This document shows, in pieces, positions 8,935 through 15,275 of a stretch of DNA of 64,000 nucleotides (position 1 is the first letter of the stretch; every line of letters starts with the position of its first letter). The stretch comes from an uncultured Aliarcobacter sp. (lineage in GTDB: Bacteria > Campylobacterota > Campylobacteria > Campylobacterales > Arcobacteraceae), in the NCBI GenBank assembly GCA_963664305.2, contig CAXXLV010000002.1, forward strand, positions 1,632,001-1,696,000, in the 5' to 3' direction. Under the pieces are notes generated by a model. That model made no database searches and was not told the origin of the DNA. It was given only the letters and a program-made list of their open reading frames with translations. The position numbers were made by a program, and so were the translations under genes.

Positions 8935-11064
8935 TCAATTATCTTTCGTTTCATTTGATAAATATTCATACAAATACAAATATTGTCTTAACTCTTTTAG
9001 GCTTTCAAGTTTAATTCCCTCTTCTATCCAAGCTTTAATATTTGAAGGAATTTCAAGTGGTTTTAATAACTCCTCTTTCTTCTTTTTTGAAATTTTTTCA
9101 TGTTCTGCTAATACTGAAATATGACCCAGAATTGAAGTTAATCCTAAATCTCTAATTTGTGCAATTTCTTCTACACTTTTTCCTTCATTTAAAAGTTCAT
9201 AAGTTTCAAGATATGTTTTTGTGAGTTTCTTTAATGGCTCTTTATTTTGTAATTTTTCTTTGTATTCTTCTTTTATCTCTTTAGATAAATTTAAAAAATC
9301 TTCTCCATATTTTTCATACTTTACAAGACCAACACCATTTATATTTAACATATCATCTTTTGTTATTGGAAGTTTTAAAGCAAACTCTTTTAAAGTCTTA
9401 TCACCAAAAATAACATAAGCTGGAACTTCATGTTCTAATGCAATCTCTTTTCGTAAAGTTCTAAATCTTTCGTAAATCAACTCATCAAAACTCAGTTCTG
9501 TTTCTTCCTCTTGGATTTTTGAAGCTACACCTAATTTATCACTATCTATAAAAAGTTTCTCTTTTCCTTTTAATATTTCTAATCCTAAAGAGCTTATTTT
9601 CAAAGCTCGAAATTCCCCTAAATTTAAAGCTTCTATATCTATTAATTTATCAGCAATTGCTATCCATTCATTTTTACTTTTATCAATTCCTAGATTATAA
9701 ACACTTAATTTATCATGTTCTAACTCTAAAAGTTTTTGATTTTTTGAACCCCTTAAAATATCTATGATGTGATTTAGTCCAAATCTTTGTTCACTTCTAT
9801 AAATAGCACTTAAAAGTTTTTGAGCATCAACACTTACATCTACAAGTTCAACTTCACCTTTTGTACAGTTATCACATAGAGTTTTACAAGCTTCAATCTC
9901 ATCTTCAAAATAACCTGCAATCATTTTATGACGACAATTATTACTCACACAATACCTATACATAAATTCCAATTTATCAAGGGCAGTTTGTTTGTATTCA
10001 TCATCAATAGCTTCTTCGATTTGTATTTTTCTTTTTACCTCATCACTTTTTGAATAAAGCATATAAACATAAGACATTTCACCATCACGCCCTGCCCGAC
10101 CGATTTCTTGATAGTAATTTTCAAGGGTTTTAGGTAAACTTGTATGTATTACAAAACGAATATTTGATTTATCAATTCCCATTCCAAAAGCGATGGTTGC
10201 TACTACAATATCTATTTTTTCATATACAAAATCATTAAAAACTTCATTTTTTCTGTCACTACTAAGCCCTGCATGATAGGCTTTTGCACTATATCCATTT
10301 TCACTCAAAAACTCTGCTGTTGATTCTGCTTCTTTTCTTGTAAAAGTGTAGATGATTCCACATAAACCTTTGTGAGTTTTTAAGAAGTTTAGTATTTGAG
10401 TTTTTCCGTTTGCTATTCGTGGTTCTACTTTTATATCAAGATTATCTCTTACAGTTTTTGCTCTAAAATGTTTTGGATTTTGTAAATTCAAAGATGAAGC
10501 AATATCAGCTTCAACTTTTTTTGTAGCAGTTGCAGTAAATGCACAAATTGAAGTATTTGGGAAAAATCTTTTTAGTCTATCAAGATTTCTATACTCAGCT
10601 CTAAACTCATGTCCCCAAGCAGATACACAATGGGCTTCATCTATTACAAAATAGTTTATATTTATTCGCTGTAAAACTGCTACGAATTCATTTGAAGTAA
10701 ATCTTTCAGGTGCAACATAGATAAATTTTAACTCCCCATTTAAAAGCTTTAGAAGAGTAAAACTATTTTCATCATTTGAAGTTGCTGAACTAATCATATC
10801 TGCACTAATATTTAAATCATTCAGAGCTTTTATCTGGTCTTGCATAAGTGCAATAAGAGGAGAAATTACAACAGTAGTTCCTTCCATAAGAAGAGTTGGA
10901 AGTTGATAACAAAGTGATTTTCCTCCACCTGTTGGCAAAATTGTCAAAACATCTTGTTTTGCAAGAATTGTATCAACAACTTCTTCTTGGAAAGAACGAA
11001 AAGTATCGTGTCCGAAAATATCTTTTAGTATTTGGTATTTTTTATTCATTTTGGATGGTAACAT
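8935..11064 (-). CDS. recQ: ATP-dependent DNA helicase RecQ (start may be the ATG at 11049)
   Basis: PTGGGKSLCYQ, DEAHCVSAWGHEFR, QEIGRAGRDG, plus RQC and HRDC (VPAYVIFGDKTL) domains. Confidence 0.95.
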   Translation of the reverse strand: MLPSKMNKKYQILKDIFGHDTFRSFQEEVVDTILAKQDVLTILPTGGGKSLCYQLPTLLMEGTTVVISPLIALMQDQIKALNDLNISADMISSATSNDENSFTLLKLLNGELKFIYVAPERFTSNEFVAVLQRININYFVIDEAHCVSAWGHEFRAEYRNLDRLKRFFPNTSICAFTATATKKVEADIASSLNLQNPKHFRAKTVRDNLDIKVEPRIANGKTQILNFLKTHKGLCGIIYTFTRKEAESTAEFLSENGYSAKAYHAGLSSDRKNEVFNDFVYEKIDIVVATIAFGMGIDKSNIRFVIHTSLPKTLENYYQEIGRAGRDGEMSYVYMLYSKSDEVKRKIQIEEAIDDEYKQTALDKLEFMYRYCVSNNCRHKMIAGYFEDEIEACKTLCDNCTKGEVELVDVSVDAQKLLSAIYRSEQRFGLNHIIDILRGSKNQKLLELEHDKLSVYNLGIDKSKNEWIAIADKLIDIEALNLGEFRALKISSLGLEILKGKEKLFIDSDKLGVASKIQEEETELSFDELIYERFRTLRKEIALEHEVPAYVIFGDKTLKEFALKLPITKDDMLNINGVGLVKYEKYGEDFLNLSKEIKEEYKEKLQNKEPLKKLTKTYLETYELLNEGKSVEEIAQIRDLGLTSILGHISVLAEHEKISKKKKEELLKPLEIPSNIKAWIEEGIKLESLKELRQYLYLYEYLSNETKDN

Positions 11065-11109: not shown

Positions 11110-12447
11110 CTAATACATTTGAATATCCTTTTCCATTTCTTTAATACTTTTATAAATTAATTTATTAAATATATATTCAATTTCATTAGATTTGACATTT
11201 TTCAAATTAAAAATATCAATTAATATCTCTCTTTTTTCATCTTTTGTTAAATCTGAAAAATTTGGTATATATTTTGTATTTGTTCTATTTTTTAAAATCT
11301 CAAAATAAGTTCGAATAAATTTTTTAACTTCTTTTTTATCATATTCAATATTGAATTTTTTAAACATATTTAATATAAAAGTATCTAATCTAAATAAAAG
11401 AGTGGTGTCATTGATTTGAGAGAAAAAATATAACCAACCATATTTTTTACCTTCAAATTTACAACCAGTAATTTTTAAATTTAATTTCCAATATAAAAAA
11501 TTTATATTTTGTTCTTTTGAATGTTTATACTGTGTGAAAATATTTATTATTGATGTATGCAAGTTATCGATAGAAGATTTTCTAACTGATATTAAATTAT
11601 TACTATATGAATAACCTAGGAAATAAAAAGTATCACTTAAACTTCCTATCTCAGTTTTATCTTTACTTTTCCCTATTTCATGTATTTTTAAATCTAAATT
11701 ATTCATATCATTTTCTAACAATTTAAATACACTAAATGTATCTTGTTTATTACATAGAATTAATATATCATCAACATATCTAAAGTATTCATAGTTTATT
11801 TGGGAAGAATGTTTCTTGTCAAATTCTATAAAATAAATTGAAGCAAGTATATTTGATATTGATAGTCCTTGAGGTACACCTTTGTTATTAGAATATTTTT
11901 CAATATATCTATTACTTTTATTTACCGTTTCTTGTTTTATTGATTTGATTAATAAATCTGTAAATTGAATTTTTTTAGTTCTTTTATATAGAAATTTAAC
12001 TAATATTTCATGATTTATAGAGGGATAAAAATTTTCTATATCCGTTTTAATATAGCTATCAAATTTACCACTTTGAATACTTGTTTTTATTTTATTTATT
12101 TTTGAATGAATTAATTCATTTGTTAATTCCTCTTCAAATATCTCATTCAATGTATTAAAAATAATTTTTAGTACTATTTTATCTCTTATTGTAGGAATTG
12201 AAATTATTCTTGGAAATTTATTTTTACCTTTTGAAATTAATTTTTCTTTATAAAATGAAAAATTATATGTTTTATTCAAAATTTTCCTATTTATTAATTC
12301 AAACTCAGAATTTTGTTTTTTTTCATAACTTTTAATATTTATGCCATCAATTCCTATTGATGGCTTATTCTTAATAGTATCATCAAAAACTTTTTTTATA
12401 TTTTTTATTTTGATATTTTTATTAAATATCCTGAATGGATATTTCAT
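11110..12447 (-). CDS. Reverse transcriptase, DRT10/UG17-like defence-associated RT
   Basis: GIDG; PRIISIPTIRDKIV; motif A KTDIENFYPSINH; motif B GVPQGLSISNILASIY; motif C YFRYVDDILI (YVDD at 11767-11778); FLGY; C-terminal YGWLYFFSQIND. The RT call is firm; the subfamily is inferred from the SLATT and ncRNA context. Confidence 0.9.
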   Translation of the reverse strand: MKYPFRIFNKNIKIKNIKKVFDDTIKNKPSIGIDGINIKSYEKKQNSEFELINRKILNKTYNFSFYKEKLISKGKNKFPRIISIPTIRDKIVLKIIFNTLNEIFEEELTNELIHSKINKIKTSIQSGKFDSYIKTDIENFYPSINHEILVKFLYKRTKKIQFTDLLIKSIKQETVNKSNRYIEKYSNNKGVPQGLSISNILASIYFIEFDKKHSSQINYEYFRYVDDILILCNKQDTFSVFKLLENDMNNLDLKIHEIGKSKDKTEIGSLSDTFYFLGYSYSNNLISVRKSSIDNLHTSIINIFTQYKHSKEQNINFLYWKLNLKITGCKFEGKKYGWLYFFSQINDTTLLFRLDTFILNMFKKFNIEYDKKEVKKFIRTYFEILKNRTNTKYIPNFSDLTKDEKREILIDIFNLKNVKSNEIEYIFNKLIYKSIKEMEKDIQMY

Positions 12448-13007
12448 TGAAAAGATATACTTACAATTAAAATAATAACTGGAAGTATGACTAAAAAGAA
12501 AAGTGTAACAAAATCTCTAATTTTATACATCCATCTTTTTACACTTTTTTCAAATGTCCATTTTCCATTAATTTCTTCATACTTTTTTTGGTTTCTAACT
12601 TCATGCATTACTTGTAAATAATCATTTTCCGAATGATTTTCTGTTAAACTAATTATCATATTATATTGATTTTTCAAATCACTATAATCTTCTTTATTAT
12701 TTTCTTTTTTGAGAATATCATCATATAATTTTGCCATCAGTACATATGATGTTTGAAGTATCAAGGCTCTTTCTTTATAATTCATTGCAAAAATAAAAAT
12801 TGATACTATAACTATCAATATAGATAAAATTAATGTTAATATTTCAAAATTTATATTTTCACATTTAATATCAACAATAGTAATTGCAATTATAAAAAAA
12901 GAATAATATGCAATCAATATTTGAGAAATTAAATCATTTCTCTTAAATCTTTCAGAAGTATTAATTCTAGATTTTCTTGTTTTCCATACATTATCACTAA
13001 AAGCCAT
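12444..13007 (-). CDS. SLATT-domain membrane protein (SLATT_5-like), putative effector
   Basis: N-terminal WKTRKSRINTSERF followed by two hydrophobic helices, a helical soluble segment ending in ENHSENDY, and a C-terminal TM helix. AGGGA RBS; ATGA overlap with the RT gene. Confidence 0.75.
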   Translation of the reverse strand: MAFSDNVWKTRKSRINTSERFKRNDLISQILIAYYSFFIIAITIVDIKCENINFEILTLILSILIVIVSIFIFAMNYKERALILQTSYVLMAKLYDDILKKENNKEDYSDLKNQYNMIISLTENHSENDYLQVMHEVRNQKKYEEINGKWTFEKSVKRWMYKIRDFVTLFFLVILPVIILIVSISFQ

Positions 13008-13031
13008 ATAAAGTCCCTATTAAAGTTAAGA

Positions 13032-13159
13032 GTAAAGTTCCCAAAAAATTAGTTTAAAATGTCTTAAAATAAGACCTATAAATAAAATGTAAACATTTAT
13101 TAATTAGTTATGTTTCAAAAGTGAAACCTATCTTTTTGTAGAAAGATAAGGAACTTTAC
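13032..13159 (-). ncRNA. Putative RT-associated structured ncRNA (~128 nt)
   Basis: Perfect 10-bp terminal inverted repeat (gtaaagttcc 13032-13041 / ggaactttac 13150-13159) enclosing four hairpins, immediately upstream of SLATT-RT and just downstream of a TATAAT box. Confidence 0.75.
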
Positions 13160-13165
13160 ATGATT

Positions 13166-13171
13166 ATTATA
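13166..13171 (-). promoter_or_regulatory. Sigma70 -10 box for the ncRNA-SLATT-RT transcript
   Basis: TATAAT on the minus strand, 6 nt before the first G (13159) of the ncRNA terminal stem. The region is AT-rich, so a chance match is possible. Confidence 0.55.
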
Positions 13172-13310
13172 TTTTAAAACTAATAATAATTAAATAAAAA
13201 TTATTTTTATATCTAAAGTTTTATTTAATCAATTTTTTAAATAAAGTGAAAATACTAATTTTATTATTTATGATATATATCGAGAATGCAAAAACACCCT
13301 CAATATAAAA

Positions 13311-13913
13311 TTATTGTCTTTGTTTCATTTGATGATTTAAGAACTCTTCTTTACTAATATTTCCATCTTTATTAGTATCTATATCTGAAAATGATGGTTG
13401 ATTATCAATATTTTTCATCATTCTTCCTTCAGATAGTTTTTCTTCCATTCTTTTCTCTCTAGCTTCTTCCATCTCTTTAGTACTAATCATTCCATCATGA
13501 TTCATGTCATAATTTTCAAAACTTGGCATATTAAAATGTTGTCCCATTCCTTGACCCATCATACCTTGCCCAAAGCCTTTGTTTCCTTGATTAAGTTGCA
13601 TTTGTTTATTTTGACCTTTTAATAACTCTATTTCAGTCAATTTTCCATCTTTATTTGTATCAAACATACTAAAATCTGGAGCATTATCTATATTTCTCAT
13701 AGGCATTCCTGCTTCTTGTTTTTGCTCCATTCTTTGTAGTCTAATATCATTGAACTCTTTTTCACTTACAAATCCATCTTTATTTGTATCATAAGTTGAG
13801 AATTCTATCGGACCTCGATTTGATATATCTTCTGCATTAACAGTGCTTATCATAATAGATAAAGAACTAGCAACAACTAAACCTAATTTAACTGTTCGTG
13901 ATAAATTTTTCAT
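13311..13913 (-). CDS. Secreted EF-hand repeat protein
   Basis: Four DxNxDG loops (DTNKDGFVS, DTNKDGKLT, DMNHDGMIS, DTNKDGNIS); signal peptide ending VNA-E; an AGGA RBS supports the ATG at 13913. Confidence 0.8.
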   Translation of the reverse strand: MKNLSRTVKLGLVVASSLSIMISTVNAEDISNRGPIEFSTYDTNKDGFVSEKEFNDIRLQRMEQKQEAGMPMRNIDNAPDFSMFDTNKDGKLTEIELLKGQNKQMQLNQGNKGFGQGMMGQGMGQHFNMPSFENYDMNHDGMISTKEMEEAREKRMEEKLSEGRMMKNIDNQPSFSDIDTNKDGNISKEEFLNHQMKQRQ

Positions 13914-13982
13914 TATCTCATCCTTTTTATTTAGATGATTCATTCTACTCTTTATTTAATATAATTACCATAACTTAATTTA

Positions 13983-15275
13983 TTATTTTAAAACGACTTT
14001 TACTTTATCTAAACTATTTGTGTTAGCAAAGTCATTTATAAGAGTTGCTAATTGTAAAACATCACTATTTTTCATTCTAATACAACCAGCTGATTCATTT
14101 GTACCAATTGTTTTTTCATTTAAAGTTCCATGTATTCTATATGTACTTTTTCCATCAACAATATGCGTAAGATTTATTTTAGCTGCACCCATATAGTTAT
14201 ATTTATCTCCAGGAGGTACAACAGAAGGAAGATTTATTCCTCTTTTTCTAAAACTTTTTATTGTATCAGCTGTTGGATACCAAACTGGGTTTAAAGAAAT
14301 TTGAGAGATTTTTCCAACACCAAAAGGTTTTTTTACATCATCTTTTCCAGTTGAAACTCTGTAAGTTTTTATCTCTTTTAAATGGTCATCTATTTGAGCT
14401 TTTACTGTCATATAATTTGTAACAGAATTTACTTCAATAATAAGTTGTTGATAATCTGAAATATTTGCTTCAATATCTTCTTCAACTTCTTTTAAAGGTG
14501 TAGGTTTAATTTCTTCTTTTTTAGGTATCTCTTTTTTGATTACTTTTGGTTTTTCATAACTTTTTGTGATTTTTTGAACTTTTTCTTTTTTTTCAAGTTG
14601 CTCATTCGCTCTATCAAATTCATCCATACTGATTTGTCTTAACTCTTCTTCGTATGAAGCAATTTTTTCATCATTTTCTTTTTCTTCTTTAGCACTCTCT
14701 TCTTTTGCTAAAGGTACAACCTCCTCTTTTATTTCTGGTTTTTCTTCCACATCTTCATCATCTACAAATCTTTTTCCCTCAGCAAATGGATAAGAACTAA
14801 CTAATTTAAACTCTTCTGTATTTGGAACAGCAGAAACCAAAGGAAACTCTTCTACTTTTTTTAAAGGAACAGTTACTTCATTTTCTTTTGGTATTACTGT
14901 TTCAACTATTTCTTGTTGAATTACTGAATCTTCTAAATCAATATAAACTTTTTTATTGTTCTCTTTTAATTTTAATACTTTTTCTTCTAACTCTTTTACA
15001 TAAGGTTTTTGTTGTTTTACATAAGTTGAAGAATTTTTTATAGTTTGATTAGCAATTTTTTTATCATCATAAACATTTAAATATGTAAAATATCTATTCT
15101 TATCTTTTACAATAAGTACTTCTGCATTCATACTATCTAGTATTCGTTTTTTACAAGTTAATGCATTTTCTAGATTTGAAGTTACACAAACTGAAATAGT
15201 ATATTTTTGCGTATTTGCAAAAACAAAAGAACTATTAAAAATAATAAATAATAAAGTTAAAATTTTTCTAATCAT
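13983..15275 (-). CDS. L,D-transpeptidase (YkuD family)
   Basis: YRIHGT...ESAGCIRMKN catalytic motif; signal peptide; Glu/Lys-rich linker. Confidence 0.85.
   Translation of the reverse strand: MIRKILTLLFIIFNSSFVFANTQKYTISVCVTSNLENALTCKKRILDSMNAEVLIVKDKNRYFTYLNVYDDKKIANQTIKNSSTYVKQQKPYVKELEEKVLKLKENNKKVYIDLEDSVIQQEIVETVIPKENEVTVPLKKVEEFPLVSAVPNTEEFKLVSSYPFAEGKRFVDDEDVEEKPEIKEEVVPLAKEESAKEEKENDEKIASYEEELRQISMDEFDRANEQLEKKEKVQKITKSYEKPKVIKKEIPKKEEIKPTPLKEVEEDIEANISDYQQLIIEVNSVTNYMTVKAQIDDHLKEIKTYRVSTGKDDVKKPFGVGKISQISLNPVWYPTADTIKSFRKRGINLPSVVPPGDKYNYMGAAKINLTHIVDGKSTYRIHGTLNEKTIGTNESAGCIRMKNSDVLQLATLINDFANTNSLDKVKVVLK

Follow-up and report, generated by a model that had tools for sequence, protein, structure and literature searches.

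DRT10 defence systems consist of a UG17 reverse transcriptase (RT), a SLATT_5 protein and an upstream non-coding RNA (ncRNA) (PMC12632851), and an arrangement in which the SLATT stop codon overlaps the RT start has been described (10.64898/2026.04.29.721553). In the characterised systems realignment is driven by an A-B-A' repeat in the RNA (PMC12632851). For Eco3DRT10 it is reported that A-B is copied, that A' serves only for realignment and that 2-4 nt of homology are enough (PMC12632851). Eco1DRT10 has an 8-nt motif with a 2-nt A/A' pair and a cryptic site that adds GT (PMC12632851), and in E3659 the template ACU-UAUU-ACU, carried by an RNA with a promoter of its own, gives (AGTAATA)n (PMC12632851; 10.64898/2026.06.29.735271; 10.64898/2026.04.29.721553). 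The priming residue of DRT10 is a C-terminal Ser or Tyr (10.64898/2026.06.29.735271; 10.64898/2026.10.08.757509), namely the C-terminal Tyr444 in Eco1DRT10 (10.64898/2026.06.29.735271) and Tyr467 in a third system, which has 3' linkers of 6-7 nt (10.64898/2026.10.08.757509). Several rules of template geometry are given for Eco3DRT10 (10.64898/2026.06.29.735271): the hairpin is the reference point for the template boundary, and copying leaves out three bases that follow the SL5 stem, of which the first is a G in a G-G Hoogsteen pair and the other two form a linker; synthesis is initiated opposite the eighth base from SL1; the 3' linker must have at least 3 nt, and two or more deletions in the 4-nt 3' linker abolish synthesis; one U added to the 5' linker quickly abolishes the repeats; and misregistered templates give short products.

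The window (the whole 64,000-nt stretch of Aliarcobacter DNA analysed) contains a 128-nt structured RNA upstream of a SLATT_5 gene, followed by a UG17 RT gene (Table 1), and in the features that letters alone can test the locus is a DRT10 (UG17) system. The 445-aa RT matches the PADLOC RT_UG17 model at 6e-153 over profile positions 5-427 of 429, compared with 1e-39 or weaker for the next best PADLOC models, and matches Pfam RVT_1 at 4e-19. With no other model scoring the RT nearly as well as UG17, retron and group II intron readings were set aside. The 187-aa protein matches Pfam SLATT_5 (PF18160) at 2.3e-29 and PADLOC RTasSLATT at 3.2e-44, and the two open reading frames (13007..12444 and 12447..11110) overlap by 4 nt, the SLATT stop lying over the RT start. 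The catalytic YVDD is intact in the window RT and invariant in all 20 aligned homologues. The C-terminus reads ...EKDIQMY, with Tyr445 as the final residue, and among the 20 aligned proteins the last residue is Y in 11, S in 8 and S followed by F in one. The 11 closest, which include the window RT and four named as Campylobacterota by their source, end in ...DIQxY, and of the nine more distant ones eight end in ...IS, ...GS, ...AS or ...TS and one in ...ISF. This clean split indicates that Tyr or Ser priming follows clade.

The closest layout among described systems is that of the Tyr-primed Eco1 and E3659 type. Eco1DRT10 and the system of Escherichia sp. E3659 (UG17-A) share with the window the order ncRNA, SLATT_5 and RT, the overlap of stop and start, a conserved loop A of ACUAAU type, and a template-loop ACU about 10 nt ahead of the closing stem. 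The gene sizes are nearly identical (RT 1338 nt in both; SLATT 561 nt in E3659 and 564 nt in the window), and the window RT ends in tyrosine, like the Eco1 RT, whose final residue is Y444. The window RNA differs in having five stem-loops where the Eco1/E3659 type has six. In addition, the conserved AC(U) of Eco1-like systems and E3659 is itself A', with a second AC(U) near loop position 4 as A, whereas the clade of the window has one AC and a repeat that flanks it. Against Ser-type and other distant aligned homologues, a comparison that leaves Eco1 outside, the window RT is 41-50% identical.

Eco3DRT10 (Tang et al. 2025; Ramirez et al. 2026) resembles the window in its five stem-loops, its template loop between SL5 and SL1 and its A-B-A' realignment, with a template loop of 19-20 nt against 18 nt in the window. 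The purine opposite the base 5' of SL5 makes a G-G in Eco3 and a G-A in the window. Unlike the window, Eco3 primes on a C-terminal serine and has a 2-nt linker, a 4-5-4 A-B-A' and a 4-nt linker, giving the product GAATCATTG; the window loop is A/U-only plus one C and ambiguous in register. DRT9 (UG28), which makes poly-dA from a U-rich template, is likewise a protein-primed Class 2 UG RT whose ncRNA is similar in overall shape (PMC12632851), and the window RNA recalls it with a U6 run beside the closing stem. However, the window RT scores as UG17 rather than UG28, a SLATT partner is present, and by alignment the U6 run corresponds to the uncopied 3' linker of the relatives. Telomerase shares the short internal RNA template, the structured 5' boundary element and the alignment region that re-pairs with the DNA end (PMC12632851), but the window system is protein-primed, extends no chromosome end and belongs to bacterial defence. 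The RT matches Pfam RVT_1 only, with no TERT-specific domains (TEN/TRBD/CTE), in a bacterium of two contigs; the resemblance to telomerase is one of mechanism only.

The RNA shows the arrangement expected upstream of SLATT, a basal stem enclosing stem-loops. The minimum-free-energy fold of 13170..13020 (minus strand) is a closing stem around four hairpins at -29.6 kcal/mol (z -4.53), and none of 200 shuffles folds as well. We aligned the region upstream of SLATT from the window and the six closest distinct loci (L001, L002, L003, L004, L005 and L085; RT identity 52-72%). In the consensus fold of these seven clade sequences, 20 of the 36 pairs are changed on both sides yet still paired, and 96% of the cells across the alignment pair. 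None of 500 shuffles reached 20 compensatory pairs (mean 7.7), and a slid control, with partners moved by 1-3 columns, gave at most seven; the seven sequences are kin (L001 and L002 are close), which means that these counts overstate independence.

A covariance model built from the seven-sequence alignment (R1) scores the window RNA at 118 bits (E 8e-21) and finds 28 matches among 88 sources. Of the 17 R1 matches in loci with the RT at 2501, 15 start at 1629-1779, upstream of the SLATT-size ORF. The two exceptions are in the Bacillota loci L037 (2304-2454) and L058 (2323-2467), where the RT follows the match immediately and no SLATT-size ORF intervenes; their E-values are weak (0.06 and 0.14), and the placement may reflect an RT-SLATT gene order. 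Outside the clade, all nine matches with E < 0.001 are in Bacillota (Paenibacillus, Cohnella and clostridial loci), and the Enterobacterales loci L014 and L025 have none at E <= 1. Hence, the clade RNA resembles Bacillota-type RNAs more than Eco1-type RNAs. An Rfam 15 search with the window RNA gave nothing above noise, and the RNA falls in no Rfam family. The -10-like TATAAT next to the closing stem has a TAnAAT counterpart at the matching place in the aligned relatives, and together they suggest a promoter belonging to the ncRNA itself, with a putative transcription start. A simple promoter scan did not list this TATAAT because it has no -35 match.

Table 1 Features of the DRT10 locus in the window (positions are those of the whole stretch).
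Feature	Position	Strand	Basis or remark
Intergenic region	13310..13008	minus	
SLATT_5 two-transmembrane effector gene, 187 aa	12444..13007	minus	ORF, PF18160 and RTasSLATT matches
UG17 (DRT10) reverse transcriptase gene, 445 aa	11110..12447	minus	RVT_1 and RT_UG17 matches
Putative DRT10 non-coding RNA core, 128 nt	13032..13159	minus	fold, covariation and covariance model; predicted ends
-10-like TATAAT, candidate ncRNA promoter	13166..13171	minus	sequence reading; 7 nt upstream of the closing stem's first base
SL1 closing stem, 11 bp	13159..13149 with 13042..13032	minus	minimum-free-energy fold
SL2	13148..13129	minus	fold
SL3	13127..13112	minus	fold
Conserved loop A	about 13111..13099	minus	fold
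SL4	13098..13085	minus	fold
SL5, last hairpin	13075..13061	minus	fold
Predicted template loop (loop B), RNA positions 1-18, AUUUUAAACUAAUUUUUU	13043..13060	minus	unpaired in fold and consensus; positional homology to known template loops
AUUUU, loop positions 1-5 (A of the 11-nt register)	13056..13060	minus	
AUUUU, loop positions 12-16 (A' of the 11-nt register)	13045..13049	minus	2 nt left before the closing stem
UAA-AC-UAA, loop positions 5-12, alternative register	13049..13056	minus	X-AC-X layout of clade loops
Conserved AC in the template loop	13053..13052	minus	C 10 nt from the closing stem

An earlier note on this DNA had centred on the loop that separates the last hairpin from the closing stem. 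That note had placed AAAAT at 13045-49, TAGTTT at 13050-55 and AAAAT at 13056-60 of the plus strand, letters and coordinates that are exact, and had called the segment the longest single-stranded linker; in the fold 13060..13043 is indeed the longest unpaired run, flanked by the last hairpin (13075..13061) on one side and by the closing stem's 3' arm (13042..13032) on the other. Read on the minus strand it consists of AUUUU, AAACUA, AUUUU and UU, or 10 U, 7 A, 1 C and no G, and it is positionally homologous to the template loops of Eco1-, Eco3- and E3659-type DRT10 RNAs. The note had likewise rightly recognised the mechanism class, telomerase-like realignment as in DRT10, which was already known. 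In characterised DRT10 systems this loop is the template. Given a fold supported by covariation, telomerase-like realignment in the loop is to be expected.

By analogy with the characterised homologues, the stretch is probably the template loop of a DRT10 (UG17) anti-phage ncRNA. The ncRNA would be made from its own promoter, fold as a closing stem with four hairpins and be bound by two copies of the RT. One copy would start DNA on the hydroxyl of its own C-terminal Tyr445, opposite a base some 8-10 nt upstream of the closing stem, copy toward the last hairpin and halt a few bases before reaching it. The end of the new DNA would then slip back to a short downstream match and be extended anew, giving long single-stranded tandem-repeat DNA, the build-up of which may activate the SLATT membrane protein. 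Every register that we considered copies the single C and no G, and the product would therefore contain only G, T and A; the prediction of the earlier note that dCTP is dispensable thus holds whichever register is used.

The unit of the repeat is a more difficult matter, given that the loop allows several A-B-A' readings. Besides the 5-nt AUUUU repeat, it contains UAA-AC-UAA (period 5), UU/UU at positions 4-5 and 13-14 (period 9) and UUUU repeats in three registers on the 3' U6 run. In letter shuffles of the 18-nt loop (n = 20,000), a non-overlapping direct repeat of at least 5 nt occurs in 38.7% and one of at least 4 nt in 86%, and UAA-AC-UAA is matched in 6%. No register agrees with every published constraint, and we therefore give odds instead of a call. 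Outcomes with no processive repeat, or with something else altogether, are somewhat unlikely taken together.

The reading that we tentatively put first, and that is possible rather than established, is a 5-nt unit (GTTTA)n from UAA-AC-UAA, with UAAAC as the template. It follows a layout that recurs across the clade, in which a repeat X flanks the AC: UUAUU-AC-UUAUU in L001, UUAU-AC-UUAU in L002, UUAU-UAC-UUAU in L003, UAU-UAC-UAU in L004, UU-AC-UU (or CUUA-CUUA) in L085 and UAA-AC-UAA in the window. The form X-(U)AC-X with X of at least 3 nt is found in five of the seven clade loops, window included, at a per-loop shuffle frequency of 0.004-0.06 (0.06 for the window). All clade loops except that of L005 have a single AC, the C of which lies 9-11 nt from the closing stem in six of the seven. 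X varies between loci while the arrangement persists, which is the behaviour expected of a realignment repeat. After realignment the DNA end would be 9 nt away from the closing stem, in line with the relatives (9-10). By itself, a 3-nt repeat in an A/U loop (0.06 in shuffles) is weak evidence. Furthermore, copying in the 5-nt register would have to end at loop position 5, a base before the boundary at position 4 seen in Eco3, L001, L002 and L085; if it ran on to position 4, the end of the DNA would form a mismatch with the C at realignment.

Where copying stops is therefore central, and the relatives give some guidance. Within the clade, the repeat begins with loop position 4 in L001 (UUAUU-AC-UUAUU), L002 (UUAU-AC-UUAU) and L085 (CUUA-CUUA); in L003 it begins with position 5. 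We infer that the 8-nt motif of Eco1 with its 2-nt GT misaddition would fit loops of the L094 type, which would back a boundary near position 4. A heuristic parse of 98 loci, 77 of them with a SLATT-size ORF, left 33 past quality filters with 30 unique loops, 29 of which have a repeat of at least 3 nt; loop ends carry a possible error of 1-3 nt. The longest repeat starts at loop positions 2-5 in 17 of the 29, compared with 37% in shuffles (binomial 0.015), and at position 1 in none, compared with 13% (binomial 0.017), figures that are indicative only because the parsed loci are kin and the parse error is a few bases. Loop length minus period, a further test, is at most 8 in 4 of the 29 relatives (14%) and in 18% of shuffles; it does not separate the two and is not used as evidence. 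Its value in relative L028 is 7, equal to that of the 11-nt register.

Strict Eco3/Eco1 geometry would instead have copying stop at position 4 and the ...AA end re-pair with the UU at positions 13-14, giving a 9-nt unit TTAGTTTAA to which slippage on the U-run would add A's (units of 10-13 nt). The position-4 boundary is the rule that experiments support, A/A' pairs of 2 nt are functional in Eco1 and Eco2 (PMC12632851), and the resulting 3-nt 5' spacer and 4-nt 3' linker are the same as in Eco3. However, the realigned DNA end would lie 6 nt from the closing stem, compared with 8-10 nt in the characterised systems and 9-10 nt in the clade, two A:U pairs on a homopolymer define no register, and the arrangement is not conserved among relatives. 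We hold this register to be unlikely.

The earlier note had favoured an 11-nt unit, in which copying runs to the hairpin base (loop position 1) and AAAAT re-pairs with AUUUU at positions 12-16 to give TAGTTTAAAAT, a rotation of AAAATTAGTTT. It uses the longest repeat within the loop (5 nt), which also covers position 4, and its 3'-terminal T:A pair would set the register on the U-run. It lies within the published search window (A of 3-5 nt, B of 3-7 nt), the homology of Eco1-like loops often reaches 5' to loop position 2, and if copying ended at position 1, templating after realignment would resume at the eighth base from the closing stem, the place of initiation in Eco3. On the other hand, a repeat of at least 5 nt is within chance (39% of shuffles), and no longest repeat among the 29 relatives starts at position 1. 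The note had also seen in the second AAAAT, with its end exactly at the base of the hairpin, the placing expected of a template boundary; 13061 is indeed the final paired base of the last hairpin, but the Eco3 boundary lies about three bases beyond the hairpin, and the 11-nt register would place its own boundary 3 nt nearer to the hairpin than measured in Eco3 or seen in L001, L002 and L085. Its spacers of 0 and 2 nt compare poorly with the Eco3 linkers, given that removal of two of the four 3' linker bases of Eco3 abolishes synthesis, and the U6 run aligns with the U-rich uncopied 3' linker of the relatives (UUUCUU or UUCUU). An 11-nt unit is thus not favoured and in our judgement rather improbable.

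The loop might also have drifted so far that processive repeat addition is lost, leaving short protein-linked DNA (as with Eco3 loop A) or irregular A/T-rich DNA. No register fits both published boundary constraints together, many loop positions differ from the nearest relatives, and Eco3 templates in the wrong register collapse to short products, all of which would suit such a loss. Against this, the RT and SLATT reading frames are intact with their motifs kept, the RNA helices are kept, and the X-AC-X arrangement is retained, and we regard a drifted loop as quite improbable. Finally, a mere 5' leader or attenuator of the SLATT-RT operon that is not reverse transcribed would suit the scan, which found no terminator-like site between the RNA and the SLATT gene, but is very improbable given that position, architecture and the conserved loop-A motif match RNAs shown to bind RT and template cDNA, and that covariation maintains the fold.

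Two further repeats touch the loop. The 7-nt AUUUUAA occurs twice on the minus strand, 10 nt apart, at 13064-13070 (the top of the last hairpin) and at 13054-13060 (loop positions 1-7). This direct repeat is longer than the 5-nt AUUUU repeat and would be relevant only if the RT reads through the hairpin. The 8-nt word AACUAAUU common to loop A and the template loop carries no signal, given that an 8-mer in common with the remainder of the RNA is present in 31% of shuffled loops.

DRT10 itself was already described in 2025-2026, and with A-B-A' templates predicted for many DRT10 RNAs a further member is expected rather than surprising. The contribution here is the Campylobacterota clade RNA, which the first published models missed and which is now defined with covariation support, together with the X-AC-X layout recurring across the clade and an A/U-only loop as a case in which the longest repeat disagrees with published boundary geometry. 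In Table S1 of PMC12632851, the Sulfurimonas locus (L001) and the A. butzleri locus, whose RT (P0014) is 73% identical to the window RT, are listed with SLATT and with 'ncRNA associated' = 0. As this first survey lists both clade loci without an ncRNA, the clade RNA is a modest addition, and supplements of the Sanchez-Nieto preprint may already cover it. More speculatively, and with little credence on our part, the realignment repeat of the clade could be a freely varying sequence flanking an invariant AC at a distance of about 10 nt from the closing stem, rather than the conserved ACU as in the E. coli systems, and the competing 5-, 9- and 11-nt registers and U6 tract of the window may give DNA of mixed period or rich in A-tracts. 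If that were true, the locus would offer a natural experiment on whether the register is set by the length of the homology or by RNA geometry.

The DRT10 system is sporadic: of 401 genomes searched across the order, 2 carry the RT, and a search of 16 other genomes of the genus gave none. Our collection of RT relatives comprises 1657 proteins (E 1e-20 or better), 80 genome loci, 10 metagenome loci and 49 viral-contig loci. Among the 10 metagenome loci, the RNA was found only in L081 (its RNA is that of L001), L082 (its contig is that of L002) and L085; a further one, L083, is 94% identical and ends inside SLATT. None of the 49 IMG/VR loci exceeds 46% identity. In addition, 14 sequencing runs from wastewater, marine or seawater metagenomes, or without an organism label, hold 20-29% of the sampled words of the locus, which is a lead only and would mean that near DRT10 relatives may occur in such samples.

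The genes around the system include a full-length RecQ helicase (DEAD, Helicase_C, RecQ_Zn_bind, RQC, HRDC and HTH_40; 8935-11064, minus), which is the next gene downstream of the RT. It has strong PADLOC 'DpdF' scores, which seem to reflect similarity common to the RecQ family and not a Dpd system. The upstream neighbours are a 210-aa protein with EF-hand calcium-binding repeats (13311-13943, minus) and a YkuD L,D-transpeptidase (13983-15275, minus), neither of which has a defence-model match in the PADLOC and Pfam searches. As for repeats elsewhere in the clade, the template UUAUUAC is predicted both in the Sulfurimonas locus L001 (1778-1912) and in the Sulfurimonadaceae locus L003 (1792-1917), and would give GTAATAA. 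This is a rotation of the AGTAATA measured for E3659, and distant hosts may therefore make the same repeat.
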